Below, piece after piece: positions 3,524 to 37,437 of a stretch of DNA of 64,000 bases (position 1 is the first letter of the stretch; each line of letters starts with the position of its first letter). The DNA lies in contig OX638151.1 in the NCBI GenBank assembly GCA_951804945.1, positions 95,294,001 to 95,358,000 on the forward strand, written 5' to 3'. Position numbers and translations under genes: made by a program. The notes below the pieces were generated by a model. The model saw only the letters and a list, made by a program, of their open reading frames with translations. It searched no databases and was not told the origin of the DNA. Source of the DNA: Podarcis cretensis (taxonomy: Eukaryota).

Positions 3524-3661
3524 NNNNNNNNNNNNNNNNNNNNNNNNNNNNNNNNNNNNNNNNNNNNNNNNNNNNNNNNNNNNNNNNNNNNNNNNNNNNN
3601 NNNNNNNNNNNNNNNNNNNNNNNNNNNNNNNNNNNNNNNNNNNNNNNNNNNNNNNNNNNNN
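3524..3661. other. Assembly gap (138 N)
   Basis: Run of N. Confidence 1.
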
Positions 3662-4125: not shown

Positions 4126-4454
4126 CTTGTATTGTCTAAAAGCTCATTTTCTTCGTCGGAACTGATTTCTATAGGGAACATGTTTTCATCTTCAGTGGTA
4201 TCATCATTTTCATCTCTTTTTGAAGTATCTATTTTGTGGGCAGATCTCCTTCTACGTTTCCTCCTTTTCTTCACAGAACAACCAGAAGAAGTGGGCTCAA
4301 CAGCGGATGAAGAAACAGAGGTTGGTAGCTGTGAACTGCTTCCAGTGTCCATGTTTCTTATCCTGTCCACAGAGTTTCTCTTCAGCTGTAACTCCATGAG
4401 AGCTGTTCCCTCCGTAAGAATGGGAGATGTAGCCAAGTGGTACGGAATTGCTTC
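4126..4454 (-). CDS. LPIN1: Lipin-1 coding exon with polybasic NLS/PA-binding motif
   Basis: 329 nt, phase 0-2, EAIPYHLATSPILTEG...VKKRRKRRRRS...MFPIEISSDEE...NT(R). HLATSPI, the polybasic tract and MFPIExSSDE point to lipin-1 rather than lipin-2/3. TTCTAG| acceptor, AG|GTATT donor. Confidence 0.95.
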
Positions 4455-5669
4455 CTAGAAAAAAGAGGGAGGAGACAAAACAGCGTCTTATTTCCCTTGA
4501 TATTCCTTATTTCATTTCCTTTGACATTTGTGAAGATTAATCTATCCTTCATCACACAGACACATATGCCCCAAAATGTACCTCAAGCTTCACATAAGTT
4601 AAGCTTTTGTAAATACTCCACCTTGCAGCTCTTTCAAATTTTGCAAAGCATAAGGCTCCATTTAGGCTATTTGGGTGGATCTACATGCAGGGGGTGGGAA
4701 ACGCTATAAATAAGTCAGAAATTAAATCGTAACAAAAGGGGGGGAAACCCTATGTAAAAACACTATTGAAAAGTTTTGTGCTCTCTGGTGCCATCTGGTG
4801 TTGCATTTTTATAACACATTCAAATCGCTGGTTTTTTGTTTTTCTAATGTAGCTGAATCCTTTCTCACCATGCTTTTATGGAAGTGCTTCCCTTTGGACT
4901 AAATAAGTATATATAAGATAGCAGCTTAAATCATGGAATCAATGCAAGATACATGCTATGGAACTGTCAAGAGACCTGCTCGTCTCACATGCCATAATGG
5001 GCTCCCCTTCCTGGAACTGGCTCCTTCCTCTGTGCAGAGGGACTAAGCTATATACTCTTGCACTGACTAGTTCTGCAGCAGGAACATGGAAGCCCTGCTT
5101 GATTTTTTTATTATTATTTTTTTTAGATCCTTTTGGGGAAAGCATGCTCAGAGGCACAGATCAGGAAAGTAATGGAAATCCAGTCACCTTGGCTTTAAGC
5201 AAATCAGCCAAGCCAATGAATGCCTTGCTACCAAAAATAGCCAGTTCACACAATCAGGTAACAATCAATTATACAGCCAGCAGTCTTGCAATATGCAAGT
5301 TTTCTTCTGCCAATAAATACTGCCAGCAAGTGAGGAAGAAACAATCAGATGAGAAAACTTTCCATTTAATGACAGCTACATGCAAACAGCAACAAACAAA
5401 ATCATTACAGAAATAATGGGGTCATGTGAACTGGCCTTTAGGTTTTGCCATCCACCCTCTTCCTCCATCTGTCACTGTGTGTAAATCAAGTCTTGAATGG
5501 TGCAAGAAATGGAGAACTGTAAATGAAATCAGATCTAGCAGCCTTCTCCCTATAATGGATCTCTTAAAGGCATAGCAGTCTTCGGGTTTGACGATCCACT
5601 ACAGATGTTGCGCTGTAACCATAATTTATCAGAAATGAAAGATGTTTGGGAAGTGGAGCTTCGTCTTAC

Positions 5670-5765
5670 CTGGTCATCACCGGTTTCCTCTACAAAAAAT
5701 GCTTCTCCGTTGTCCCCTAATTTCATATGCAAATCCACAGATTCTCCATTGATTTCTATGTCAAC
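5670..5765 (-). CDS. LPIN1: Lipin-1 coding exon (rest of N-LIP domain)
   Basis: 96 nt, phase 0-0, [32 protein letters not shown]; CCAG| acceptor and CAG|GTAAG donor. Confidence 0.97.
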
Positions 5766-7263
5766 CTGGGGAGGGCAAAAGACTTTTGAACAAACGTACA
5801 ATTTCACTGCAAAGCACCGGAAGAGTTAGCGTGTGAATGAACATTCTCTGATATCTGTGAAAAGGGCTAATTCACATCATCCTAGTTAACATTTATGTAA
5901 GGTGATGAAAGTACTTCACATTATCTCGCAATCGTTTACAGCAGCCCTGTAAGGGACATCAGTGCTATTATCCCCATATTTCATGGCTTGGGGCGGCAGG
6001 TGCTCAGAGGAAGAATATAGAGGTTTGTCAAAGGACATCTATCTAGCAAGTTCATAGCTAGGGTACAATTTGAAGCAGGGAACTTCTCAGATGATCTTCA
6101 TATGCATATTCACAGTGTCGTGTGCCTGATCTAACAAAAGTTAAGCATCAACCAGCTTCCTGGTCCCAGGTGCCACTGAGCTCCAAATAAGCAATTTTAA
6201 GTGACATTTTCAACAGCGAAAGAGATAAGCTTAAGCCCACCGAATCCCTATTAAATCCATAAAAGTGCTTAAGGTGATATGTTGTCCATTGATAGGATCA
6301 GTATTGTAAACAAACAGTGGCCTTCCCAGTGATAAAAGGCCTTATCCAAAAAAAACCCCAAATCTGTGAGCAAACAACCCATCTGACACACAATAATTAC
6401 CACCTCTCTGGGTTTTGTTGTTTGGTGAAAGTGCTGAGGACACAAAATTCTAGTTCCCATGGTTCTTTTGTGGGGAGTCAGTGCTCCAGCACATGCATCA
6501 CAGATCTGCCCAGAGGGCCAAAGCAGACGATACATTAACTTGCACAATGACATTTGCCTGTGCTTTCCTTTTTACCATGGCAGCTGGGGGCGGAAATTTG
6601 AGACTGGGACTGCGGTGTGAGGAAGATTGGGGAGGAGGATCTAACACTTCCTGATGGAAATGTCCCCCACCCCGGTCAAAGCAACCATTTGCCCAGAAAG
6701 GAAGCTGCTATCCCGGTCTGGAACAGGGACCCCACAGCTACAGATATATGCACTGCACTGTCTCTGCACCTACATCTTAGTGTCTCCATGAGAAGGACTC
6801 AAACTCAGATGACTCACAAGTCACCATACTGAGCACCACCTTCTACATTACCCCAGCCTAAGGGCATGGCTCTTCCATCATGCCTCGACTCTGGTGGCGA
6901 CTCTCCTACAGCTTCTCCTGATCCACAATCCTGCAGGAGTATGTTATATGTGCCCTTGAAGGGCTTCAGCCAACCCTCCTGGTTGAAGAAGACCTTGACT
7001 GGCCTTCTTATGACTCTGGGCCTTTGCTGAGACAACGTCTTCCACTGCTGAGCCAGCAAGGCCCACTGGGAGCTGTCATGGGGCCTGAGCTGAAGTGGTT
7101 CTAGTAACCACTAACACACATCATTGTGCATGCAATGTATCATCAAGTGTGGTCCTGAAAGTGCATAGGATGAAAACATCCCTGCCCCCAGCACAATATA
7201 CTGTGTGAAGAGGGAGCTACTGACAAAACAAAAAGCATGTCAAGACATCTTCTGTCCCCCTAC

Positions 7264-7455
7264 CACTTTTTCCTTCGAACGCAGAACTCCCATCTTTCCG
7301 AAGCGCACGTGGAAAGGTGAACAGTGGAGGTTCCCATCAGGCTGGCGGACAACGATGACATCTATGCACCCAGACAGCGTGGCGGGATTTAATCCTTTAT
7401 AGAGCTCCTTCACAGTCACAAAGACTTGGCCTGCTAACTGCCCAACGTAATTCAT
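7264..7455 (-). CDS. LPIN1: Lipin-1 first canonical coding exon (N-LIP domain start); whole exon is 7264-7464
   Basis: Encodes [64 protein letters not shown] (192 nt), the lipin N-LIP start. Acceptor CCAG|GCACAAACCATG at 7464; donor GTG|GTAGG at 7264. Confidence 0.97.
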
Positions 7456-18755: not shown

Positions 18756-21700
18756 TTAACATTCCTCAATTTTACAATTATTTTTAAGATATATCTTGAA
18801 ATTCTTCCAGTCCTCTTCCACTGTCTCTTTCCCCTGGTCCCGGATTCTGCCCGTCATCTCAGCCAGTCCCATAAAGTCAATCACCTTTGTTTGCCATTCT
18901 TCCAGAGTAGGTAGTTCTTGCGTCTTCCAATACTTTGCCAGTAGAATTCTTGCTGCTGTAGTGGCATACATAAAGAATGTCCTATCCTTCCTTAACACCA
19001 CTTGGCCCACCATACCCAAGAGGAAAGCCTCTGGTTTCTTAGGAAAAGTCCACTTAAGGACCTTCTTAATTTCATTATAGATCATTTCCCAGAAAGCTTT
19101 AACCTTTGGGCAGGTCCACCAAAGGTGGTAGAAAGTGCCTTCAGTCTCATTACATTTCCAACACTTATTATTAGGCAAATGATAAATTTTTGCAAGCTTG
19201 ACTGGGGTCATGTACCACCGGTAGATCATTTTCATAATATTTTCTTTTAAAGCATTACATGCAGTAAATTTAATACCGGTGGTCCATAACTGTTCCCAGT
19301 CAGCAAACATAATATCATGACCTATGTCTTGTGCCCATTTAATCATAGCTGATTTCACCGTTTCATCCTGTGTATTCCATTTTAACAGCAAGTTATACAT
19401 TCTTGATAAATTCTTAGTATTGGGTTCCAACAATTCTGTTTCTAATTTTGACTTCTCTTTCTGAAATCCTATTTTCCTGTCCTGTTTAAACGTCTCATTT
19501 ATCTGATGGTAATGCAACCAGTCTCGAACCTTAGGTTTTAGTTTCTCATAACTCTGAAGTTTCACCCTTTCACCATCGTATTCTATAATCTCATGATATT
19601 TTGGCCATTTAGAATCCATATTAAGCTTTTTTACTTCCCTAGCTTCCATTGGTGACACCCACCTAGGGGTTTTGCTTTCCAACAAATCTTTGTATCTAAT
19701 CCAAACGTTATACAATGCTTTCCTTACAATATGGTTTTTAAAACTTTTATACACCTTTACCTTGTCGTACCATAAATATGCATGCCAACCAAAACTATTG
19801 TCATACCCTTCCAGATCCAAAATGTCAGTATTCTCAAGAAGTAGCCAGTGTTTCAACCAGCAGAAAGCTGCTGATTCATAGTAGAGTCTTAAGTCCGGCA
19901 GGGCAAACCCCCCTCTATCCTTTGCATCAGTTAAAATCTTAAATTTAATTCTGGGCTTTTTGCCCTGCCAGACAAATTTTGATATATCTTTCTGCCACTT
20001 CTTGAAACAATCCATCTTGTCCACAATCTGCAGCGTCTGGAATAAAAACAGCATTCTAGGCAATACATTCATCTTAATAGTAGCGATTCGGCCTAACAAG
20101 GAAAGTTTCAGCCTTGACCATATTTCCAGATCCTTTTTAACTTCTGACCAACATTTTTCATAATTATCCTTAAATAAATTCACATTCTTAGATGTTAAGT
20201 TTACCCCTAGGTATTTTACCCTTTTTGTTATTTCCAAGCCTGTTTCATTCTGAAAACTCTCTCTTTCTTCCATTGTTAAATTTTTTTCCAACACTTTCGT
20301 TTTTTGTCTGTTCAATTTAAAACCTGCTACTCGACCAAATATTTCAATTAGTTCTAAAACTCTTTTAGTACTAGTGTCTGGCTGTTGCAAGGTCAATACT
20401 AAATCATCTGCAAATGCTCTTAATTTATAATGTCTAACTCCGACCTGAACTCCTTTAACCAACTGGTCCTTTCTGATCATATTTAACAAAACCTCCAGGA
20501 CTGATATAAAAAGTAAAGGGGATATTGGGCAACCTTGTCGTGTACCTTTTTCTATAGGTATTTCTTCTGTTACCACGTTATTTACAATTAATTTGGCTTT
20601 TTGTTGAGAATATATTGCACCTATACCGTTTTCAAAACCTTGACCTACCCCCATCCCTTGGAGATTCTTTTTCATAAATGTCCAACAAATGTTGTCAAAG
20701 GCTTTCTCCGCATCCACAAAAATCAAAACTGCTTTCCTATTAATGTCAACGTCCAGCAGCTCCAAAATGTCTATAATGTTCCTCACATTGTCTGACATAT
20801 GTCTACCTGGGAGAAAGCCTGTTTGGTCCTTATGAATCTCTTCTGCCAACACTCTTTTCAATCTTTTTGCCAAAATGTCTGCAAAAATTTTGTAATCCAC
20901 ATTAAGTAAAGATATAGGGCGGTAGTTTTTAACTTGGTTCTTCTCAGTCTCTGTTTTCGGTATAAGTGAGATGAAAGCCTCTTTCCACGATTCAGGTGCC
21001 TTTTTCCCCTTCAAAATTTCATTGCAAACTTCCTTCAATGGTTGTATCAGCCATTCTTTCAGCATTTTGTAATATTTGGCCGTCAGGCCATCTGGTCCTG
21101 GTGATTTTCCCAGTTTCATATTTTGAATGGCACCCTCTATTTCTTGTTCTGTTATTTCCTCGTTTAAGATCCTTTTACTTTGTTCTGAGATTTTTGGTAA
21201 ACCGTATTTTCTGATGAATTCTTCTATTTCTTGCTCGTTGGTTGGCCCTTGTGCATACAATTTCTTAAAAAAGCTTTGAAAACAATTGTTGATCTCGTTG
21301 GGTTTGTGGATAATCTTTCCATCCATTTCTAAACTTGTTACCGTATTCATTTTCTGCCTTTTTTTCAATTGCCATGACAGAAGTTTCCCACATTTATCCG
21401 CTGATTCAAAAGTTTTTTGTCTCATTTGCTTTATCTTCCATTCTATTTGTTGGTTCATGAGTTCCATATATTGCATCTGATGAAATTTTATTTCTCTCAA
21501 AATCTCATGAGACTTTGGTTTGGACCTCAACTTCTTCTCTCCTTCTTTTATTTTTTCTAAAATTTTTTCCTTCTTTTCATTTTGTTGCTTCCTCTTAATA
21601 GAGTTTTGTTGAATTAGGAAACCTCGCATCACGGCTTTGCTTGCGTCCCAAATTATTCTTTTTTCCACATCTGTTTTCCTGTTGATCTCAAAATAATCTT

Positions 21701-22493
21701 TTAATGTTTTAAGGGCCTTCTTGTGGATCTCTTCGTCCTTAAATAGGGTGTCATTCATTCTCCATCTAAAGGAACCAGTAGTTGTTAGTTTCATCTCCAT
21801 CTTGACCGCGTTGTGGTCGGAGCACGTTTTTGGGCAGATTTCTACTTTTTTTGTTCTTGACGCCAGACTGCTAGAAATCCAAATTTGGTCTATTCTTGTC
21901 CATGTCATTTTTGCTTCTGAGAAGAAAGTTCCCTCTCTCTCTAAAGGATTCTTTGTTCTCCAAATGTCAATCAAGTCCATTGTTTCAGTCATTTCAAAAA
22001 AGATCCTTGGTAGTCTCCCTTCTTTCGAGATCACTTGTCTCTGTGCTTTATCCATGTTTGTTGAGACAACTCCGTTCATATCTCCCATCATTAGGATTTT
22101 ATAATCTAAAAAGTCAACTAATGTCTCATGCAACTTCCTAAAGAATTCAGCCTTCCCTTCATTTGGGGCATAAACTCCCACAATTAATATCTTTTCTCCT
22201 TGAATTTGTATTTCAATTGCCAGGTATCTTCCTTGTTCATCTTTAAATATCAATTTTGGAGCCAACTTTTCCTTTGCATAGATCACCACACCTCTTTTCT
22301 TTACTTTGTCTGATGAGATGAATTCTTGACCGAGTCTCTTATTTATTAATAATTTCCTATGTATCCTGGCAATATGGGTTTCTTGCAAACATATTATGTC
22401 TAATTGTTCTTTCTTCAAAATGTGAAAAACCTGTCTTCTTTTCCGAGGAAGGTTCAAACCATTACAGTTCCAACTAAGGAGTTGCAGAGACAT
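18756..22493 (-). CDS. L1 ORF2p (APE endonuclease, reverse transcriptase, CCHC), 1245 aa from MSLQLLSWN
   Basis: EN motifs SWNCNG, LQETH, GDMN, RIDQ, SDHN; RT motifs YRPISLLN, DAEKAFD, GTRQGCP, FADD, YLG; C-terminal CWKC...H...C. No stops or frameshifts. Confidence 0.97.
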   Translation of the reverse strand: MSLQLLSWNCNGLNLPRKRRQVFHILKKEQLDIICLQETHIARIHRKLLINKRLGQEFISSDKVKKRGVVIYAKEKLAPKLIFKDEQGRYLAIEIQIQGEKILIVGVYAPNEGKAEFFRKLHETLVDFLDYKILMMGDMNGVVSTNMDKAQRQVISKEGRLPRIFFEMTETMDLIDIWRTKNPLEREGTFFSEAKMTWTRIDQIWISSSLASRTKKVEICPKTCSDHNAVKMEMKLTTTGSFRWRMNDTLFKDEEIHKKALKTLKDYFEINRKTDVEKRIIWDASKAVMRGFLIQQNSIKRKQQNEKKEKILEKIKEGEKKLRSKPKSHEILREIKFHQMQYMELMNQQIEWKIKQMRQKTFESADKCGKLLSWQLKKRQKMNTVTSLEMDGKIIHKPNEINNCFQSFFKKLYAQGPTNEQEIEEFIRKYGLPKISEQSKRILNEEITEQEIEGAIQNMKLGKSPGPDGLTAKYYKMLKEWLIQPLKEVCNEILKGKKAPESWKEAFISLIPKTETEKNQVKNYRPISLLNVDYKIFADILAKRLKRVLAEEIHKDQTGFLPGRHMSDNVRNIIDILELLDVDINRKAVLIFVDAEKAFDNICWTFMKKNLQGMGVGQGFENGIGAIYSQQKAKLIVNNVVTEEIPIEKGTRQGCPISPLLFISVLEVLLNMIRKDQLVKGVQVGVRHYKLRAFADDLVLTLQQPDTSTKRVLELIEIFGRVAGFKLNRQKTKVLEKNLTMEERESFQNETGLEITKRVKYLGVNLTSKNVNLFKDNYEKCWSEVKKDLEIWSRLKLSLLGRIATIKMNVLPRMLFLFQTLQIVDKMDCFKKWQKDISKFVWQGKKPRIKFKILTDAKDRGGFALPDLRLYYESAAFCWLKHWLLLENTDILDLEGYDNSFGWHAYLWYDKVKVYKSFKNHIVRKALYNVWIRYKDLLESKTPRWVSPMEAREVKKLNMDSKWPKYHEIIEYDGERVKLQSYEKLKPKVRDWLHYHQINETFKQDRKIGFQKEKSKLETELLEPNTKNLSRMYNLLLKWNTQDETVKSAMIKWAQDIGHDIMFADWEQLWTTGIKFTACNALKENIMKMIYRWYMTPVKLAKIYHLPNNKCWKCNETEGTFYHLWWTCPKVKAFWEMIYNEIKKVLKWTFPKKPEAFLLGMVGQVVLRKDRTFFMYATTAARILLAKYWKTQELPTLEEWQTKVIDFMGLAEMTGRIRDQGKETVEEDWKNFKIYLKNNCKIEEC

Positions 22494-22500
22494 TTTGTAT

Positions 22501-23493
22501 TTAAGTAGCTGTTCCTCCAACTGCTCCAAGCTTCTGCTCTTCCTCCGATGGTGGTAATGAAAGTCCAAATGACAAATTTGCTATATCGGGTGGTTCCCTC
22601 TCCTCCACGGTTCCTTTCTGCAAATCCTCCAGATACTTCTCTAGAAATAGTTCTTTGTCCTGAATTGTTTTTATTTTAATCTTCCTTCCATTAAAGTTAA
22701 AGGACAATCCTTGTGGAAATTCCCATCTGAATGGTATGGTGTTTTTCTTCAGCAGGTCTACTAAACTCTTGTAATATGTTCTCACCTCTAAAATGTATTT
22801 AGGAATGTCCTTAAAAATCTGTATCTGACAATTTTGGATCACCAGTGCCTTTTGGTAATGCAAATTCAGTATTCTATCTCTTTCTTCTTTTGATCTCAAT
22901 GTAATTAGGCAATCCCTTGGTTTTTTATCCTGCCTTCTACCCAGTCGAAAGGCTGAAATTATCTCAAGTTCCTCATCTTCCTCCCATTCCTCCCGCCAAA
23001 AAGTTATGATGTTCTCTGTGAGAAATTTCACAAGGTTGTCCCCTTCCACTTCAGGCACCAATCTAAATTTTAAATTCTTCTCTTTACGTTGAAGTTCCAG
23101 TAAGGAGAGGGCTGCATCATGCTCATTCACTTTTTTAATAATAGGCCCAAATTTTTCCCTTGTCTCTTCAGCTGTTATTTTTGCACTTTCTGCAATCTTT
23201 CGTGTTTCTGAATTTTCCTGAATTAATCTATTTATAGAATCTGTGTTCGATGCGACACTAGCCGTATTCACATCCAACCTTGTTGTCAACTCTGTTAATT
23301 TTTTAGAATTCTCTGTCGAAAGTTTTGTCAATGCTTCCAGGGATTGATTTATTTTAAGTAGAGCCTGAGTCATAGGATCCATAGAAGCTGGTGTTTTTTC
23401 CTGCACAGCTGCAGTTCCTGATATAGAGGCCCTTTTCTTGTGAGATTGTTTTGCTTTCTGCCTTGTTACTATCTCTTCTGTAGGGGCACTCAT
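22501..23493 (-). CDS. L1 ORF1p (coiled coil + RRM + CTD), 330 aa
   Basis: Heptad-rich N-terminal half, then KNLKFRLVPE (RRM start), AFRLG, KPRDCLI, IQIFKDIP and FRWEFP; lies directly upstream of ORF2. Confidence 0.92.
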   Translation of the reverse strand: MSAPTEEIVTRQKAKQSHKKRASISGTAAVQEKTPASMDPMTQALLKINQSLEALTKLSTENSKKLTELTTRLDVNTASVASNTDSINRLIQENSETRKIAESAKITAEETREKFGPIIKKVNEHDAALSLLELQRKEKNLKFRLVPEVEGDNLVKFLTENIITFWREEWEEDEELEIISAFRLGRRQDKKPRDCLITLRSKEERDRILNLHYQKALVIQNCQIQIFKDIPKYILEVRTYYKSLVDLLKKNTIPFRWEFPQGLSFNFNGRKIKIKTIQDKELFLEKYLEDLQKGTVEEREPPDIANLSFGLSLPPSEEEQKLGAVGGTAT

Positions 23494-25305: not shown

Positions 25306-26549
25306 GTATATAAACTCAGCCGCCCACACTGCCATCACAGCCAAATAATATTGCATGACTCACTACCCAGTAATTTCCCCAGAGCCTTCTCTAGTCTGGT
25401 GCCAGCCCTAAATAACAATATGTTTTAGTCCAGAATAGAGGTAGCCTCCATAGTGCCCTCCAGATGTTGTTGACTACAACTCCCATCACGCATAACCATT
25501 GCTCTTTCTGGCTGGAGATGACGGGAGTTGTCGTCCAAAACACTGGTGGGCTCTATATTAAGTAGCCTTGATATAGAATGTGTGATTAATGACTGTGGTT
25601 GATGAGATGAGATATTTTGAAATCAAATGTACATTATTAGTTATTGCCATTCATATATTCAAATTACAGATGCAAGGACGGCATAGATGCAATTAAAAGT
25701 AAGCACCATTTGCGCATAGATTGCATATCACAAGGGATGCAATCCAGTTTGAATAGTGCTGCTCCTTCACTTTGGTTTATACTTACTTAATTGTATTTCT
25801 CTTCTCGTTTGTTATATGTCAATCTCCCGTGTTTTATATTGTGATGACTACCAGGTTATAAGCAATAAAACTGCATCACTTGTGAAAATGGTTTTATGAC
25901 CAAGGTGACAGCATTTTTTGACTTGTTTAAACAAGATGCTCCGTAATCTAGAATATCAAAGCATTGCCTATATATATATATATATATTCCTGATTTCAGA
26001 ATATCACCCCACTGGGAGTAAAGCTATACATTAATCCTATTTACTGGGTTGTTTTTCTTCTACCTAAAGATAACATATTTTTCCCCACAAGAGCATTTAC
26101 AGTACAGTAAAATATTTTAATTTCAAAATGGAGTCGCTTTCCTGGAATCACCTGCACATCCCAGAAGCCACAGAGAACTGCAAATTTCTGGAGTCGTTTC
26201 ATGTCTAAAACCTTCCTGATAAGCTACACCTGCCAAAATCCTCTCCTATGCACATCAGTCAAAACCCTACCCTCCTTTGCACAGTCTCACACAACCCATA
26301 CTCCAGGTGTGTACAGTCTTCCAACTGCTACTCGAAGTGAAGAAGAGTACTCTGCACATGCTCAGATCGAAGTTCTAGCAGTTTCCAAAACTTGGGTTTC
26401 CAGCTGTTTTTTTAGAACTACAATTCCCATCATCCCTGACCACAGGTCCTGCTAGCTAGGGATGATGGGAGTTATAGTCCCAAACAACTCTTCTAAGGAG
26501 ACACAGCCCTAACAAAAAAGACCAAGTAAAAAAAGGGGTGTTATGGATT

Positions 26550-27750
26550 TGAGCTTGGGCTAGCCGTGGCGAGCTTATCGTTGGACTGCTCACTACCGCG
26601 CTCCTTCAGCCTATCAAGGCGAAATATGACGAATGGTTGCTGGACGTGTCTGACTGCAGTTGGCCGTCGGGATCTCCCCTTAGCAGGGCCCTTCCCGCAG
26701 AACCTTGAGCGCCTTTTTGCTTGGCTGCTGTGCTGTGACTCAGCGCGGGGAGGAGGGGATCTGAGGCGATCCCCGCGGCCAATCGGGGAGCGGCGTGTCC
26801 TCAGCCGAACGCGGATGGGGGGGGCGGGTCCGCGCGCTGCTGGCAGAACGCAAGGGGGCGGGGCCTCGGAATGTTGTTTGCATGAGTTTCCGAGGCACGT
26901 GTCGCGTAAACACCATTGTCCCCAGGCTGGTATTAAATTCGAAAGGGGAATTTTACCAATCTGAAGCATGGGCGTAGCCAGGATTTTTTTTTTTGGGGGG
27001 GAGGTATTTTGTTAGGGGAGCAGAACCTCAGATTGCCATGTATTTTTATGGGTTTATAGTTATTGGGGGGGGGGGGCGCCTCTCCCCTTCGCTACATGAT
27101 CTGGAAACGGAATAGTTCGCAGGGTACATACCCAAAACAGGGATATTTATTTCAAAAGGATGGGTTTTGAATGGGGTTTGGCTTATAAGGAAGATGGTGG
27201 CTTTCTCACGTTCATATCCCTTAACCTCCCCCCCCCCAAAAAAAAAAACCAGTGCGGGGGGGGGGGAGAGACTTCTGAGCACTTTGCGTTTCTGCAACTG
27301 ACATCTCTTCAAAGTGCTCAGAAGTCCGTTGTTCACCTTGACACGTGAAAGCACGGTCGTGGGTATACGATCCTGTTTGCGTTTCTGCAACCGACGCCTC
27401 TTCCAACAGGATCGTAGGTATACCTACGATCGTGCTTTCACGTGTCTGGGTGAAAAGAAAAGGCGGAGAGACGAGGAGTCGCGATCAATGGCAAATTCAT
27501 TATAATAAATGAGAGTTCAGGAAGTTTGACAGCCGACCCTTTAACGCATTTGCCTGCCGCTTCCGTTGCTGTGAGTGTCTCCCTTTCACGTGCTGGCTTC
27601 GCGTTTGAGCAATCGCTTCTCCCTTACCTGGTGTAAAAGGGAAGCAAAAACAAGGCCCGGGCGGTGTGAGAGACGACGCGCGTTCCTAGCTACCGCAGCC
27701 AATCTTGGAACGAAAGGAGAGGAGGGATGTCCTCTGAACCAAGCTCACAG
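26550..27750 (-). promoter_or_regulatory. LPIN1: CpG-rich LPIN1 promoter / first-exon region
   Basis: CpG-dense non-LINE DNA in a CpG-poor window. CCAAT at 26779 and 27699, GC boxes at 26821 and 26855, CACGTG at 26896/27342/27439/27587, TGACTCAGC at 26736, GTAAACA at 26906, and a minus-strand donor CAG|GTAAGG at 27628. Confidence 0.75.
26967..27098. mobile_element. Short hAT-like MITE inside the promoter
   Basis: CATGGGCGTAGC ... GCTACATG termini with G runs; flanks ATCTGAAG / ATCTGGAA resemble a decayed 8-bp TSD. Confidence 0.55.
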
Positions 27751-30700
27751 GAATGTGTGTGGGCAGGGGCGCTTGTTTAAAGCAGAGGAACAAAAGGCAG
27801 GGAGGAGCTGCATGCACGCATCGAAAAAATAAAAATAACAAAACAAGGACGGGACAGCACGGTGTTTTTTAAAACAACAATACCCGTGCAGTAATCAGCA
27901 ATGCAACTTTTCCGTGCCTACTTCTGAGGGCAGAAGTGGAAGACAACTTTTGTCAAGAAGGAGGCAAGCAAGCTTCCATAAATTTTGTCCCTAGGTAAAT
28001 AATCAACTTTAATAAATCACATTTATGGTTCAGGAAAGGGCCACATAGCTCAATGGTACATCATTATGTTTGGCAAGCAGTAGAGTCTACCTAGTATCAA
28101 GGTCTGGCATCAGCGGTCAAAAATAGACCAGACAGGCAAGATTCTCTGCCTGAGACCCTGGATAACTGCTGCCGGCCAGAGTAGTAGACAAAACTGAGCT
28201 AAATACACAGCTTCCTGTACTCCTAATTCTTTTTTGTTTTGTTTTAGTTTGCCTATTTTATAGAGATGTCCTTTGCAATGCGCTCAGGCACATTCAGGTA
28301 AAAGGTCTTGCAACACTTCACAACAGGAAAAGCTTTAATGAACCAGTAGAAACCAGATTATGTACCAAGAACCAGCCTGCTTTTATACCCGCATCTTCCA
28401 GGGTAGGTAATGCCTGTGATATTCATGATAATTGGTTGCAATCCTGCACCACTCAAATGAATGGGAGTTTTGCTATTAACTTTGACAGGAACAAAATTGC
28501 TGGCCTGTTTCTTTAAAAACTAGGGGAGACGCACCTTATACAAAGTGACATCGTGGCATTATTTTTAAATTAGCTTCCATAAAGCAGGTGAATTGCTGAA
28601 TTCGGTTCTGGTAAGATTTGTAAGGGAACAAAATGTGATTCAATAATTCAGCAAGTAATCTTTTTTTAGGACTTCTTTTTTAGGGGGTGGATGTAGAGCT
28701 GCCATTTCAGATGGATGGATGGATGGGAAGAAGAATGCACACAGGAAGGTTTTATGGCCCAGTAAATTGAAAATTAGTGTGCTGTAAGAGCATTTGTTGC
28801 AATAATTTTCACTTCATATCTTACTTTAGCTGACTACTATGGCAATATTATCAACGCAGGGCAGCCTGGATTTGTTCATAACAACTGTGGTGAGCCAAAA
28901 AGGTTAGGAGTATATCTAGCTAGAAACCTTAAGCCCCGTAATAACAATAGCTTTGGAACAATAAAGTGGGAAAATTAGATTGATGAGATGCTGAATGAAG
29001 ATGGAACCTTGGTCTGATCCAGCAAGGCATTTGTTATATTCTTACATTATGGTTTTTATGATCTGAAATTCAGGAAGGGTCACTGCCCCCACTGTCCTGC
29101 TCCCCCCTCCCCAAATATAAAGATACTGATGGAGCAAAATTCCTCTGTTATCAAATAAAATGCTCAGACTGTATGGAATGATGCTTTCTGGGACAGCTAG
29201 AATCCCAGGAATTGTGTCTGTATCCCCACAGAGTAAGGCTTCAAGATTCTTTTTGCTGACTCTTTATCATTTTCCTAGCAATCATTCATACACAAGGATA
29301 TTCATTTACAGAGGGAAGGCAAAGGTTTGTATTCATCAGACATTTCTGGCAATAGGTTTAACCTCACAAGCCAAAAGCCTCTTTTTGACAGACAAGTTTT
29401 CTCTAGCTGAATTTCTGATCAATAACTGCTGGCGTTCTGTGTTCTAAAAACCATGCCATTTCCACAATGACCTAGTATTTTCATATAACACTGCTTTTAC
29501 AAAGTCACACGATTTCCTCTGTCTAGCCCACTGATGTCTGTTTTGACTGGTGGCCAAGTCTCCAAGGCTGTTTCTCAGTTCTGCTGAGATATCTTTTAAC
29601 TGGAGATGTTGGGGAGTGCAACTTTGAACTTCTGCTTCCTGTACATGTACTTTTCCCATACTTTCCCTTTCATTCACTAATCAGCTCCATAACTTAAGAG
29701 CTGCCTCTAAGAGGCCCTGTACACAAAATTCACCAACACTGACATACTCACCATAACGTCTAAATGGTGTGTAAATTTTGCCATGCATCGGAATGCACAC
29801 ATGGTAAGCACAAATTTAGGCATCATTCTGAACATACGGAAGCAGGTGGAGCTGGGAGCTTACAATTAGCTCCATGCCCAACCCACCTAAAATGTGCTAA
29901 GTTTTCCACATACGTGCAGTAGGGCTTCTGAAAAATTGACTGCCATACGTTAGAATTTCGCTCCAACCAAGTGAGATTTACTTCTCAGCTAACATAACCC
30001 AGCAGCGCTGGCCCAGATGCATAGATAAGCATAAGCAGACAGGTCAAATAAATTCTGCATTTGCCCTCAACCACACTTTCTGCATTTCTGCTGTTGTGCT
30101 AGGTCAGCCATGGAGGTTACAATATGATTTCTTGAACTGGTTAGTCTGGTTGCTCAAAGACAACCTCGGTACAGGAAACAGGTGAGAGGCACAGAGACAT
30201 ACTGCCAGAAATCTGGACAGACGGACAGAAGCGGTAAACAAGTGGGAAGAAGGAAGATAATCAGAAACAAATATTAGTGTCACAAGGAGACCTTGAGGTT
30301 CTCAAGCATTTGCTTTTAGGAACCTGTTAGCAATTCCAGTTATCTATGGTATGCAAAAGAACAGATTGCATTTATAGGTTTTTTTCCAACCTTCACATAT
30401 ATAACACATATCTAAGAAAGGTTGTTCTGCTCTGGACATATCTAAATACATGCAGAAAAAGAGGGGAAGAACTCCAGGTACTAGAAATGGGCTTTATTCC
30501 ACACCTAACACATTTTCAGGGAGAAATCCTTCATTGGGGGGGGGCATTTTTCTAGCAGAAATTCTCAAATGCAAGCAACACCAGAGCAGAACTATATTTA
30601 GTTCTGTGCCCTTTCAGAATGTGTCTATCGTCCAAGTTTTTACACTTCACTTTTGTTTCAGATTACCAAGAACGAGGGCTAGTTCCCCCACCCAGCCCAA

Positions 30701-31235
30701 AAGAAACTGGCAAACCTGACTGTCTTAAAAGCAACAAAAGACATATACGTATCTCATTTTATACCATTTCAAACAGCATTCTCACCTTGGTCTAGTTCAT
30801 CAGATCTGCTTGTAATTGATAATGACTGGGAGACTTGACATGCTGGATGGGCTTGTCTGTACCTGGATTCTTGCGGGTGGAGAACTGGGGGTGTCTTAAT
30901 TTCTTTGGGGCTCTCCATTTGAATTAGCCTAGTGTAGGCTTCCCAATTTGTGTGGTGGCCATCTTTTCTTTTTCAGGCTCTTATACTTTCTCCATCCTTC
31001 CACCACGCCCCCTCTCCCCTTAAATCCTTCAAGCCTGGCCTCCACCCTTCCCAGCTGCCCCTGTCTTAGGAAAACCCCTGTTGTTAAAAGCTTTCATTGT
31101 GGCATCATCCACAGGAAGACAATGATGTTTTCAGAAGTACTTTCAATGAGAGTGAGGAGAGGAAGGGAAGATATAGAAGGAAAATGAGAGAATCAATGGG
31201 ATTTTAACTCCTGGTCTAGTTAAGGATTACAAGTA

Positions 31236-31551
31236 AAGGTAAAGGGACCCCTGAACATTAGGTCCCGTCGTGGTCGACTCTGGGGTTGCGGCGCTCATCT
31301 CGCTTTATTGGCCAAGGGAGCCGGCGTACAGCTTCCGGATCGTGTGGCCAGCATGTCTAAGCCACTTCTGGCGAACCAGAGCAGCACACAGAAACACCGT
31401 TTACCTTCCCACTTTGACGTGCTTTCGAACTGCTAGGTGGGCAGGAGCAGGGACCGAGCAACGGGAGCTCACTCTGTCGTGGGGATTCGAACCACCGACC
31501 TTCTGATCGGCAGGCCCTAGGCTCTGTGGTTTAACCCACAGCGCCACCTGT
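31236..31551 (-). mobile_element. Sauria SINE (with internal deletion)
   Basis: tRNA-derived head with GGTTCGAATCC B box, GTTCGAAAGC body and (ACCTTT)n tail; TSD GGATTACAAGTA. Confidence 0.9.
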
Positions 31552-31563
31552 GGATTACAAGTA

Positions 31564-31924
31564 AAGGTAAAGGTAAAGGTACCCCTGCCCGTACGGGCCA
31601 GTCTTGACAGACTCTGGGGTTGTGCGCCCATCTCAAGAGGCCAGGGGCCAGCGCTGTCCGGAGACACTTCCGGGTCACGTGGCCAGCGTGACATCGCTGC
31701 TCTGGCAAGCCAGAGCCGCACACGGAAACGCCGTTTACCTTCCCGCTGGTAAGCGGTCCCTATTTATCTACTTGCACCCGGAGGTGCTTTCGAACTGCTA
31801 GGTTGGCAGGCGCTGGGACTGAGCAGCGGGAGCGCACCCCGCCGCAGGGATTCGAACCGCCGACCTTTCGATCGGCAAGTCCTAGGCGCTGAGGCTTTAA
31901 CCCACAGCGCCACCTGCGTCCCTC
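31564..31924 (-). mobile_element. Sauria SINE, different subfamily, tandem to the previous one
   Basis: GGGACGCAGGTGGCGCTGTGGG head, B box and (ACCTTT)n tail; TSD GTGGATTACAAGTA at 31550-31563 and 31925-31938. Confidence 0.9.
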
Positions 31925-32613
31925 GTGGATTACAAGTACTTCCTTCTAAATTAGCATTAGCTGTGGGAGCAGAGTAAGATTCTGAATTACGTTCTCTTTT
32001 GTATTACGTTACTTTCCTTTTATACAAAGCACTCCCAGTTTATTTTTCCTAACAGACATTTATATACATTATTTCTATACCGACTTCAATGTATTATGTT
32101 AGTTTCCTTTTGAACAAGACCTCACTGAAGACTTAATAGTGACATTTATCATTCTTTTTACCAACAAATATAGAAGCTGGAGACAGAAAACCTGTTTGTC
32201 ACAGCCCAGCACACCTCAGGCAGCTTCTGCATCCTGGTTTTAGCTGGCTCCACCTAAAACTCTTTAGTCTCTCCACCTCTCCCAAATTCAAACTGCAAAA
32301 CTGGTTCCAGGCCACAGTGCTTTTCTGCCTTTCCCTTTAGCCCAAAGGCAGGGGTAAGATTCCAAACCGTCAAGCAACACTCTTGCATTGGCACACTCTT
32401 TAGACCTGTTGGAATATGGTAATTTATACTGCAGCATGTCCACTCAGAAGTAAGTGAGGCTCACTCCCAGGTAAGTGGATATAGGTTTGCAGCCCTTGTC
32501 TGATAAAAGAGGGTGGTGAGCCAGAACTGGAGAACCTGTGGCACTCCAGAAGATGCTGAACTCCCATCAGCTTCAGCCAGCATAGACAGTGATTCGGTAT
32601 GATGCGAGTAGTA

Positions 32614-35600
32614 TCAATCGATTTTCAATCGATTTTATTGCATTAGCCATACGGCCATAGCATAATATACATAGAAATAACAACATAAAATGGGGGTGGG
32701 GAGATAAAAGTGGATGTCGTCCTGGGGGAATACTTTGAGAAAATGAGGATAACAAAAGTTACGGGGGATTTAAAACATCGAGTGACAGAGAATACAAAAA
32801 CACGTTCGATTGTGCGGCATATCGACTACATCTGTGGTGTTAAAGAAGGAGTTGGTGCCGCTTTCCTCTTCATCACACTAAGCAGGAAATTAGCTGTCAT
32901 CTCGGTAATCCAACAGTCAGAATCCTGCAGAAGAAGGGACACTATCCAGGGCTGGATTGGGAGATGAAACTTGTTCACGAGAGGAGTTAGAAACCGAGAT
33001 CTTTCATCTGTCCAGTTGGGACAGAAGAGCATTACATGTTCCATAGTCTCCAGAGCCGTGTCGTTGCAGGAGCATGTTCTATTTGCGATGGGAACTCTGG
33101 AGTAATGACCCGACAGAACTGCTGTAGGAAAGCAGTTGAGACGGGCACAGGTAAAGGCCCTTCGCTTAGCCTCCGAAGGAATTGTGAAGCAGTATAGAGG
33201 GATCCCTTCAGGGGGTGGAATAGCTAGGGCTAAGCCTGAACACGGCCCTCTTGCATGGGAAGCTGTGTTAGAGAAGTCAAGTTGCTGTAGCTTCTTTTTG
33301 ATTAGAGGTAGGGCCGCCGGGCTAATACACTCTAAGTTAAAAACAGTTTTACGGTTCAAATTGAGAAGAGAGCGGAATTTGAGATTAATTGTAGTTTTCC
33401 AAGGAGAATTATGAATATCTCTTAGGATCAAATTGGAGAAACCACCTCTAATTCGAGCATCCGATGCTAGTAGGTGGGAGCTATAGGAAATGGCTCGACT
33501 CCATGCTCGTTTTACAATTGAGGGCTGGGCGAACTCAAGTCGTAGGGCTGCACCTGAGACACATCTCGGGACGCCGGAAAGAGATCTCAGAAACATGTGA
33601 AGTGGGCGATCCAAGTTACCTGATATTGCTGTAGTCCATACTTCGCAGCCATATAATAATTTAGGGACAACTTTGGCATTAAATATTTGAATTGCTGCTG
33701 GAAGGTATTTGCCGCCCTTCTGGTGATAAAATCAGACAATGGCATTAGAGGTCGTGGTTGCAGCAAGAGAGGCAGATTGTAGATGGGTGGTCCAGGAGAG
33801 ATTATAAGTAAATATTAAGCCTAGATATTTAAAGGCTTTTACCTTTTCTAAGTAGCCACCTGTGATCTTAAGCGGCTCCAGCTTGAGTTTGCGGGAACGA
33901 GTGAAGTGGAGAACTTTAGATTTTTTATAATTAATATTAAGAGCTTCCACCTTACAATAGGCGATAAATGCATTAACTGCATTTGCTAGGTCCGCAGCTG
34001 TTCTGGATAAGATGACGGCATCATCCGCATAGAAAAGGGAAGCAACGGGGTGGCCTGCTAAGTGAGGAGGATACTTAGTTGCTAGCTTCAAAGGGGAAAG
34101 GGCATCATGAAGATAAAGATTAAACAGTAAAGGGGCCAAGAGACAACCTTGTCGGACACCCCTGGCCATTGGGAATGGAGTGGTAAGGGAGCCGTTGGGA
34201 CCAATTCGAACGCGAGCTGTGGTGTTTGAATAGAGGGAAATAATTAGGGAGAGGAGGTGCGGATCAATTCCCAGATGGGCAAGTTTGGACCATAATCTCT
34301 GCCTAGGAATGGAATCAAAGGCGGCCTCCAGGTCCATGAAAGCGGCAAACAGGTGGCCTTGCCTTGGTGCAGTGTATTTACTGGCAAGGTGATAAAGAGT
34401 TAGACAGTGGTCCATGGTTGATGCTGACTTCCGGAAGCCAATCTGTTCTGGCGGTAGACTGTTTCTCTCATGGACCCATGAAAGAAGTTCTTCCAGTAAG
34501 ACAGCGGCAAATATTTCCCCCGGAATAGATAGTAAGCTGATGGGGCGATAATTCCTGGGGATGTTTGGCTGGCCGCCTTTGAAAATCGGAACTATTGTAG
34601 CTTCTCTCCAGGAGTCGGGGATGTCTAATGCGGAGGAGATAGCGGTGAATACAGGAGTCAGCTGTTCACTCCACCAAAGAGGATCAGTCAGGAAAAGGTC
34701 CAACGGGACCATGTCTGGGCCGGGGGCCTTATTCCTTCGCATGGACATTATGATGTTGAAGATGCGGGTTGAGGTGAAATTTACTGAGGAGGTGGAACTG
34801 AGAGAACAGGAACAGAGGTCCAACGGGGATTGAAGGTGATCTGTAAGATAATTTGGAGAAGCGAAACTGGCTGAATAATAGGCGATCCATTCGTCAGCGG
34901 AAATCAGGATAGCTGAATTGGGTGGTGCCGAAGGCCTAACTAAGCGCCAAAAGGAGCGGGAGTCATGCCTCTCTACAGCCGAGCGAAGAGTGGACCAAGC
35001 CTCAAGGATGTGTTGCTGTTTCTTGCAATGAATCATGTTTCTGTATGTCCTTTTAGTAACTAGAAGCTCTGCACAGGTTTGAGGGTCGTTGGAAAATTTG
35101 ATGGTTCTGACCATTTTCCTAATTCGCCGCCTTAGGACTTTGCATTCCTTGTCAAACCAAGGTGATTCAGAGAAGAAGTGTTGGTGGGTAGGCGAGGTGA
35201 TGGTTATGTAAGTTGTTGAAAAAGCATCAATTAATTTCCGGTATTGGTCAGCGGGCGGAATTGAGTCAGAAAGAACTGTAGGTATATCAAGTGATTTTTG
35301 TATGTCCAGGGCAAGAAAGGAGCTGAGGCTTGTCCATTTCTTTGTTTTATATACAGGGTAGCTTTGTGCTGTGGAACTATAGTTTGAGGGGACTGAGAAT
35401 GGCTCTATTAGGTTTAACATTAAAGTCAATGGAAGGTGGTCACCACCAAAATATTCAGCCACTTCCATTTTTGTAGAGATTGAGAATAGCTCCGGCGTCA
35501 ATAGAATGTAATCGACAACACTGGTTCCCCGGGAAGAGATGCACGTTAACTGCTGCGAGGACAAGGGAGTAACATTGCCATTTGCGATGCAAAGATCGTT

Positions 35601-35932
35601 TTCGATGGCCAATTGGGCCATCAGCCTCCCCGACGCATTTGTTATGGGATCAAGAGAGCATCTGTTTCCCCAGGGGGGCTGCAGGGAATTGTCCAGGAGT
35701 GCTGTGGAAGATAATATAGCATCGTCGTTGGGACCTATTCTTGCGTTAAAGTCGCCTAAGAGGATTTGAGGAAGTCCTGGGTTAGTTGTTTGAAGATCAT
35801 GAAGCCAAGACGAAAGTTCAGACCACCTTTCATTACGGTCGGAATCATTAATTGCTGGAGGCAGATATACTGTAGTTATCAACCATGGGCTTTTGGTCTT
35901 TGGAAGGTGGATCTTTATAGTGAGAAATATAG
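32614..35932 (-). mobile_element. 5'-truncated non-LTR retrotransposon, RTE-X-like, with 77-bp TSD
   Basis: EN-RT-CCHC coding sequence, short 3' UTR, AATAAA and an 11-nt tandem-repeat tail. Identical 77-bp direct repeats at 32537-32613 and 35933-36009. Clade call rests on the C-terminal AFTCARLN...CSC...ETMEHVMLFCP pattern and needs a phylogeny. Confidence 0.9.
32826..35932 (-). pseudogene. RTE-X-like EN-RT ORF with N-terminal truncation and one nonsense codon
   Basis: GDFNAR, VDYI, GDHLP, PGPD, NYRPISLL, QIGFR, GVRQGC, YADD, YLG. The two tracked ORFs share one frame and are separated by a single TGA at 33732-33734 (NAIV*FYHQKGG...). Confidence 0.88.
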
Positions 35933-36234
35933 TGTGGCACTCCAGAAGATGCTGAACTCCCATCAGCTTCAGCCAGCATAGACAGTGATTCGGTATGATG
36001 CGAGTAGTAGTCAAACCACATCTGGGGTACCATAGGCCCCACATCTCTGGTACAGGCAGTAGTTGCAGTTGACACCCTTCAGATAACTCGCACGTATACA
36101 CCAAGAATATCATTCCCTGCCTCGCAACTCCACTACAGCTTGCCACCACGACTTCATAAGGTTGAGAACGCTTGTGCCTTTCTGTAGCCCGGACTAGAAA
36201 ACTGAAAAAAAGAACCACTGACATCCAGCAGTAA

Positions 36235-36330
36235 GAAAGCACGTCAACACTAGCGCCAGCGTTGCTATGCAACAGCTCAGCACTTCCTTTTCCTGTTGGA
36301 ACTCTGCCCTGATTGGCTGCCATCTTTGGC
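36235..36330 (-). promoter_or_regulatory. Promoter-like motif cluster (YY1, NF-Y, ETS, RFX X-box, CRE-like)
   Basis: On the minus strand within about 90 bp: AAGATGGC (36319-36326), AGCCAATCAG (36309-36318), AGGAAGTG (36281-36288), GTTGCATAGCAAC (36261-36273), TGACGTG (36240-36246). Confidence 0.5.
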
Positions 36331-37437
36331 AGCTGCGATAATGAGGATTACAAGAAATCCCACCTGCACGGAGTGGAGATGGGAGAATAAGTAATGTTTG
36401 CTGGAATAAGACTAAGGGATATCTGTGTGCTTATGACACATGCCATGACCAAAGTGAGGAGCCATTGGAACTTCATATTCCAGGGTCACCCGTTAAAAAA
36501 ACTAGGAGGGTTGGCTAAGAGGACCAGGATATCTAAAACAAAATGGGACCAGGATACCAAAAATATTGCCTCACCAACTGCTCACTGGGATCTGCAAGAG
36601 AGAAACTCCTGCAGATACCATCTCATCAGCAGGTCTGTTCTGCACAGAGCGCAAATTGGGAATTTTAGTGTGGCAGTAGCTATGCTTTGGAGCTCTGTCT
36701 CATTACATATCATGCAGGCGCTATCTCTATTTAAGTGATGATGATGGTTTTTAAAAATCCCTGATCCTCTGGAGAAGCTGGTGCCTCTGTTGATTAGATA
36801 TCCCACTTCCAGTGACCTGACCCTAGTTACACCCACCCAAAAGTGGGGAAAGTAACAATACTCAACATGTATGTGGGAGCTGAAATGCTGACCCGTGTTT
36901 CAGAACCGTGCATAAAACAGAAGTACTGTTGAAAGCTCTAACACTGAGGGATTAAGGGGTTAGGGTGGCTTCCTTCCACTTCAGACAAGTGCCATCAGTC
37001 TATTATTTGCACTGCACTCCCAAGCCTGCACTTTTTGTTTTAAATAAAATACTTTCTGACAACATCAAAGAGGGGGTGAAGAAACTAGGAGACCTTGAGT
37101 GCATGCCAGGCAAAGACTTCTTCGTACATTTTAAAGCAAAGCCTTTGTTTTCCCAGAGAATATTTTCCCATGGCAAGGATAAGAAAATATTTCCTGATGC
37201 TGCTAATCCTGCTTAAGAGCACCAAAGCTATAAAGTACCATAGAACAACCACAAAAGAAATATACAGTGCCTGTTTACTCAGAGGTTTTCCACGGTCTCT
37301 AGCATGGCTGACTCCCAAATAAAGGGTGCCTAGGATTCCAAGCCAAAACTTGCGCTATCCCACAAGCTAAGAATACCACCCTTTTCCTCATGGACTTGGA
37401 CAGAGAGCGGCTGTGTGTGCCAAATATAATATTTTCT

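Follow-up and report, generated by a model that had tools for sequence, protein, structure and literature searches.

Results

A truncated LINE copy upstream of a lipin gene

The DNA analysed here (the window) is a stretch of 64,000 nucleotides from Podarcis cretensis (contig OX638151.1, positions 95,294,001 to 95,358,000), which carries on its minus strand, at 32614-35927, a 5'-truncated copy of a long interspersed nuclear element (LINE). It is on the strand of a lipin gene and lies upstream of it, about 25 kb away from the first coding exon, and the copy's reading frame continues into the adjoining host DNA. Because endonuclease and reverse transcriptase (RT) share one open reading frame (ORF) and the copy is truncated at its 5' end, carries a 3' tail and is bordered by a target-site duplication, the element is an APE-type non-long-terminal-repeat retrotransposon, in other words a LINE. 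Of a two-ORF element of 6.7 kb it retains the last 3.3 kb, from ORF2 codon 137 onward, and is devoid of the 5' untranslated region, ORF1 and the first endonuclease motifs. Its 3' end (32614-32639, minus strand) consists of the element's AATAAA (32639) and a short repeated tail, this AATAAA being the first poly(A) signal of the carrier allele downstream of the promoter-like motif cluster described below.

The first 633 bases of the element (the endonuclease part) gave 41 matches in its own genome, and the RT part 73 first-look candidates. Family comparisons were made with 37 of the 40 other endonuclease-part matches, three being left out, and these copies are 94.9-99.1% identical to the window copy. 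ORF2 is open for at least 1144 codons in six of the 37. In long copies, which measure about 6.7 kb, ORF1 has about 600 codons; ORF2 has 1169, and its first ATG is found 64 codons in. In one of these copies (L090), Pfam Exo_endo_phos is followed by RVT_1 in a single ORF. A substantial ORF1 is present, open for 529-623 codons in the long copies (605 in one), and in a further copy, L088, it occupies 4410-6227 on the minus strand, divided from ORF2 by one stop codon. Two pieces of ORF1 returned no Pfam family at E 0.1, no Atlas match and no SGNH esterase. At the protein level, a UniRef entry from Podarcis muralis shares 97% identity with the family. Four family copies lie within 143 kb (G000:C7:54965409-55108122), perhaps reflecting a tandem gene cluster or a segmental duplication.

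The target-site duplication is an exact 77-mer, with its upstream copy at 35933-36009 and its downstream copy at 32537-32613. The first-pass annotation of this locus had drawn the element boundary at 35932/35933; host DNA does end at 35933, but similarity to the family starts at 35927, and the intervening 35928-35932 (minus strand) are five extra letters that are absent from the long copies, are similar to element letters located just downstream and determine the reading frame. They may have originated by a template slip. As a separate observation, the duplication is about five times longer than those of 25 other family copies (6-16 bp by a rough finder, whose values of 9 or less may be chance), and the insertion may have taken place at a pre-existing staggered break. 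A literature search on long duplications in RTE elements found no comparable case.

An open frame joins host DNA to the element

The 863-residue ORF announced by the first-pass annotation exists: it runs on the minus strand from the ATG at 36323 to 33732 and is composed of 130 host codons (35933-36323), two junction codons and 731 element codons. An upstream in-frame stop is located 8 codons 5' of this ATG. Four additional in-frame ATGs follow, at 36224 (already pointed out earlier), 36113, 36044 and 35963, from which products of 830, 793, 770 or 743 residues would start. Among host positions of the window, a fraction of 3.4e-4 has an in-frame ATG at least 130 open codons upstream, and 9.8e-4 has 130 open codons upstream if no ATG is required. 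At such frequencies, 0.3-1.4 frames of this kind are expected by chance per thousand young truncated copies, so that a scan of many windows should meet a few. The in-frame join of host and LINE is likely to be a chance event of about 1 in 1000 per copy; this alternative, which the first-pass annotation had itself allowed for, fits best.

The predicted product lacks most of the RT thumb

The element-encoded part of the frame begins with a remnant of the APE-type endonuclease (35430-35927, minus strand), in which YLPP, GDFN, VDY and GDH are kept and the N-terminal WN and CLQE motifs are missing; the loss of N-terminal endonuclease motifs was correctly anticipated, the first two having gone with the 136 N-terminal codons of the 1169-codon ORF2. 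The RT fingers and palm follow (Pfam RVT_1, aa 589-837; 33813-34559, minus strand). Both motifs named previously are there, YADD at aa 765 (34031) and YLG at aa 833, and the catalytic aspartates (D..YADD) and the primer grip are intact. Translation would end at a premature TGA (33734-33732, minus strand; ORF2 codon 868), the single stop reported ahead of the CCHC region. It falls inside predicted thumb helix 1 (849-872) and leaves the ORF2 remainder (32826-33731, minus strand) untranslated, including the helix-clamp P..Y at 33665, thumb helices 2-3, a helical region and the CCHC motif (33074-33021). In all, the C-terminal 302 codons, about a quarter of ORF2, are lost after the stop.

To place this end point in the fold, we relied on human L1 ORF2p, to which the alignment stops at element residue 708 of 731, corresponding to L1 residue 775. 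This residue ends the L1 palm, the thumb comprising 776-862 (PMC11719894), and the predicted product ends 23 residues past the palm. In a profile built from 37 related proteins, L1 P819..Y823, the thumb helix clamp that grips the primer (PMC10830420), is matched by the element's PKLLY. PKLLY lies 22 codons beyond the stop, and the clamp residues P891/Y895 are lost. Structural modelling of a long natural copy (mean pLDDT 78.5) gives helices at 849-872, 878-894 and 910-920, and the best structure matches of the model are L1 ORF2p. The truncated product would thus have neither the three-helix thumb, of which most is missing, nor the helix clamp, the wrist-equivalent region and the CCHC motif. Upstream of the stop, at ORF2 position 607 (34515-34517, minus strand; aligned to L1 ORF2p 541), the window copy also shows K>E, a change private to it. 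This lysine, following RPISL, is conserved in 36 of 37 diverse proteins and in all 36 readable family copies. The earlier statement that the whole RT core is kept does not hold: fingers and palm alone remain, with the thumb cut in helix 1 and a substitution at a nearly invariant site. If made, the chimeric protein is predicted to be a dead reverse transcriptase, and a working enzyme from this frame is unlikely.

The copy is recent and probably decays neutrally

Codon 868 reads CGA in 26, TGA in 4 and otherwise in 2 of the 32 copies covering the site; since CGA prevails and TGA recurs, the premature stop is, on comparison of the copies, a recurrent CpG decay change. The window copy has 20 private changes, eight of them of CpG type. 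Those upstream of the stop number 7 silent and 9 missense, against 204:311 in the 37 other copies (Fisher p 0.80) and 31:56 in the ten closest copies (p 0.58), and purifying selection on the frame was not detected in this comparison, which has low power. The private changes are like those of other decaying copies, and the window copy is best seen as decaying neutrally. Twenty changes in 3.3 kb (0.6%) resemble the flank difference among samples with the same species label (6 in 860) and lie below that to a second species, B (13 in 669), or to a relative, H (12 in 391). Judged from sequence comparison, the copy is a recent insertion from a young family.

In both runs of relative H (X19 and X20), contigs go from the downstream target-site duplication straight into the upstream flank, i.e. 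the site is empty. Suggestive of the same are contigs from X1 and X4, which share the species label, and from X5 (species B), all of which pass through the duplication without element letters. In run X2, by contrast, the contig stops precisely where the duplication ends, as would be caused by a second path into the element tail in a carrier. Among the contigs listed, none spans either junction. The insertion was not found to be fixed and shared with relatives, being absent from H, with elementless contigs in samples S1, S3 and species B, and is probably unfixed.

The host flank holds a dense promoter-like motif cluster

The host DNA preceding the element starts with an old dispersed repeat (35933-36050), which has dozens of matches of 73-84% identity and received the LINE insertion, and continues as single-copy DNA (36050-36500). 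Within the latter lies a promoter-like motif cluster (36240-36326, minus strand), and the five motifs that the first-pass annotation had placed within about 90 bp are all located in these 87 bp. The motif words, to which we presumptively attach their usual names, are YY1-like (36326-36319, holding the ATG at 36323), CCAAT (36316-36310), ETS-like (36287-36282), an RFX-like palindrome (36273-36261) and CRE-like (36246-36240), all on the minus strand. The cluster is the sole place in the window with five, four or even three motif classes per 100 bp, and 100 simulated 64-kb sequences had at most three classes in 100 bp, the motifs having been chosen after the fact. It is not a CpG island (observed/expected ratio 0.49). 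An apparent genome-wide enrichment of YY1 plus CCAAT (95 vs 7 in a reversed control) was rejected, as the control holds CpG and about 78 are expected from length.

The host frame shows no conservation. In the modelled empty allele, the frame from the same ATG is open for 167 codons. Codon 56 (36156) is changed from TAT to TAA in both runs of relative H, and sample S3, of the same species label, has four missense differences; the 10 listed differences comprise 5 missense, 1 nonsense and 4 silent. No Pfam family was found in the host frame at cut-off, and a weak search of longer proteins for a homologue scored none of 82 candidates. A search for neighbouring genes at 36400-64000 matched none of 142 open frames of at least 62 codons to Pfam.

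Contigs tentatively labelled as RNA, from the two runs of relative H, span 36251 (or 36218) to 35933 and go on to 32201 (or 32223) unspliced. The empty-allele stretch so covered amounts to 655 nt, made up of 36010-36251 upstream and 32201-32613 downstream. In itself, this stretch upstream of the lipin gene is a candidate for a short, as yet unannotated non-coding RNA, and a minus-strand AATAAA is found near it at 32044. The contigs end at 36218/36251 and 32223/32201 with no loose end, and depth in X19 and X20 is zero at about 36302-36571, 36734-37200 and 31945-32194; neither was used as evidence for a start or an end, and, as both runs come from one study, the contig ends were not taken as transcript limits. 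For 35933-36900 no RNA-labelled run is listed on record, and two small runs of the same species label, tentatively labelled as RNA, share next to none of its words. No splice to a lipin exon was seen in the H contigs, among the loose ends listed. Read-through of host RNA into the LINE copy is plausible because the motif cluster is dense and unspliced contigs of this kind extend over the empty site.

The lipin gene and other features of the window

Lipin_N domain matches mark the first two coding exons of the lipin gene, 7261-7455 and 5643-5768 (minus strand). From its residues the gene is presumptively LPIN1; the earlier designation is borne out as to the lipin family, and a paralogue search in the PDB yielded only a ciliate lipin. 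Between these exons and the element lies a CpG island (26400-28000, minus strand) with a strong splice donor at 27627, which likely represents the main promoter and first exon of the gene. That the motif cluster acts as a promoter is plausible, with motif density, single-copy DNA and the RNA-like contigs of H in its favour. As to a putative alternative LPIN1 promoter, the clustered motifs do lie upstream on the gene's strand, but no splice to a lipin exon was seen among the contigs listed. A literature search on lipin upstream promoters brought up no like case.

A second two-ORF LINE, presumably L1/Tx1-like, is located at 18756-23493 (minus strand) within the lipin gene's first-intron region and on that gene's strand; it appears intact, with an ORF1 of 330 residues and an open ORF2 of 1245 residues holding endonuclease and RT. 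Just downstream of the truncated copy, two CpG-rich SINE-like copies, which we assume to be Sauria SINEs, stand in tandem at 31230-31920. A single run of 138 N (3524-3661) is far from the LINE copy.

Discussion

The observations are best explained by a recent 5'-truncated LINE that lies some 300 bp downstream of what is likely a weak promoter, with a frame that is likely open by chance and a protein that, if made, would be an inactive RT; we put the probability of this reading at roughly three in four. A target-primed insertion, truncated at ORF2 codon 137, would have landed in an old repeat near a likely weak promoter or enhancer, where the flank already possessed a long open frame by luck and ORF2 was brought into register with it by the junction letters. 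It seems somewhat probable that the motif cluster fires weakly toward the lipin gene. In carriers, RNA might then, though we would not quite expect it, pass into the copy without splicing and terminate after about 3.6 kb at the AATAAA of the element; there is no strong splice donor between the motif cluster and the element, hence the run-through to 32639. That ribosomes would start at one of the five in-frame ATGs and make a chain of 743-863 residues is doubtful. Should such a chain be made, being without the primer-gripping thumb it would very probably be inactive and unstable.

Several points weigh against this interpretation. A strong start context surrounds the ATG at 36323, whose frame contains four more ATGs. 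The open flank of 138 codons is an outlier, as all 14 other ORF2-truncated copies measured have 29 or fewer (copy L071 was left out of this count, its first match having mapped elsewhere). In the LINE family of the window copy, with 45 copies assumed, only 0.015-0.06 such frames are expected by chance, so that an explanation by chance has to draw on the large number of young LINE copies in this and other genomes. The selection test rests on 16 changes and has little power, and the raw dN/dS is 0.40 for the window copy and 0.48 for the other copies. The importance of lysine 607 for RT is suggested by its conservation, and L1 K541 goes without mention in the main texts of the L1 papers examined, the supplements of which may list a contact. 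Further, the RNA label of the H runs is a guess, and the data are unstranded and derive from one study of another species. Finally, DNA contigs built from 31-letter words can drop junctions to high-copy repeats, and X1, X4 and X5 are hence no proof of an empty allele.

How far could the frame amount to more than an accident? A segregating natural gene trap, in which the promoter at 36.3 kb would drive an unspliced 3.6-kb RNA and a host-LINE fusion of 743-863 residues in carriers, with an upstream lipin transcript cut off, is unlikely, though it would mean a transposable element-derived gene caught at birth. The insertion could, less probably still, act at the regulatory level, ending an upstream lipin transcript or enhancer RNA early, or splicing into the lipin gene and so changing expression in carriers. 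Its orientation on the lipin strand, the element's AATAAA being the first after the cluster, strong donor-like sites within the element at 33859, 33842 and 33619 and the unspliced passage of H contigs over the site are consistent with such an effect, but those contigs show no splice to a lipin exon among the loose ends listed, and the likely main promoter is located in the CpG island (26.4-28 kb), downstream of the element, with the consequence that the main message would bypass it. It is very improbable that a small coding gene of 167 codons existed in the host frame beforehand and that the LINE became fused to it; RNA-like contigs cover most of that frame in H, yet codon 56 is a stop in the same relative, 5 missense and 1 nonsense changes are among the 10 listed differences, about 40 codons derive from the old repeat, no Pfam family was found, and the weak protein search scored 0 of 82.

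The functional claim of the first-pass annotation, that a working though endonuclease-dead RT is expressed from an alternative lipin promoter, has to be weighed against the same facts. The frame, its ATGs and the motifs are real, the catalytic aspartates and YLG are intact, RNA-like contigs of H cover the site, and endonuclease-less fragments of L1 are able to drive the copying of Alu in trans (PMC4889948). Against this stand the thumb cut in helix 1, the loss of the clamp and of the C-terminal 302 codons, the K>E change and the missing selection signal, and the functional L1 pieces retain thumb and wrist (238-1061, PMC10830420) or extend to the C-terminus (348-1275, PMC4889948); the claim of an expressed enzyme is thus scarcely credible. 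That a thumbless protein would still copy RNA or poison the active family is more improbable than any other possibility considered here. Very little credence is given to the junction being an assembly artefact, in which a collapsed 77-bp repeat would have had a family copy assigned to it. The contigs listed leave both junctions unspanned, and 77 bp far exceeds the 6-16 bp of 25 other copies, but the anatomy is canonical (tail, exact duplication, junction letters), the 20 private changes occur as a set in no other copy, and the X2 contig breaks at the duplication end as a path into the element tail would make it do.

As it stands, the locus, with a single young and damaged LINE copy, is of little consequence. 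If carriers make the fusion RNA and protein, however, the locus would be a natural test of a one-step gain of expression by a promoterless copy, with carriers and non-carriers as controls, and would also show whether the isoforms of a fat-metabolism gene shift when an insertion lies upstream of it. For an RT free of endonuclease to work under a host promoter would be a surprise, one which the sequence argues against.

Regarding known systems, a substantial ORF1 separates the RTEX clade from BovB-type RTE (PMC3905857), and the element resembles RTEX (PMC3905857, PMC5753468) as an APE-RT element with a real ORF1, unlike BovB-type RTE, but its ORF1 is without an esterase or other Pfam match. The SGNH esterase is known in some RTEX members only, and a substantial ORF1, being common to other clades, is not diagnostic; a homologue search of the element protein returned no clade names, and a literature search gave no usable RTEX definition beyond ORF1; RTE-X, as the first-pass annotation called the element, is a tentative label. 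Intact members of the family share with human L1 ORF2p the APE endonuclease, the fingers-palm RT, the three-helix thumb and the C-terminal CCHC (PMC10830420, PMC4889948). Active L1 RT fragments keep thumb and wrist, the active core spanning 238-1061 (PMC10830420) and the fragment that works in Alu copying, 348-1275, reaching the C-terminus (PMC4889948), whereas the window product, only 16-19% identical, would keep neither thumb nor wrist. Most LINE insertions in the lizard Anolis are rare alleles (PMC5389967), and the window copy is like these low-frequency polymorphic insertions in its youth, its small active family and the elementless contigs in other samples, the difference being that the host here is a lacertid. 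A literature search on truncated ORF2 driven by a host promoter found no like case; the closest parallel is with 5'-truncated human L1 copies, which are transcribed passively (PMC13221650). Like them, the window copy has no promoter of its own, lies in sense orientation to a host unit and would obtain its RNA from upstream host DNA; what sets it apart is an upstream host frame that stays open into ORF2, a configuration that is rare per copy.

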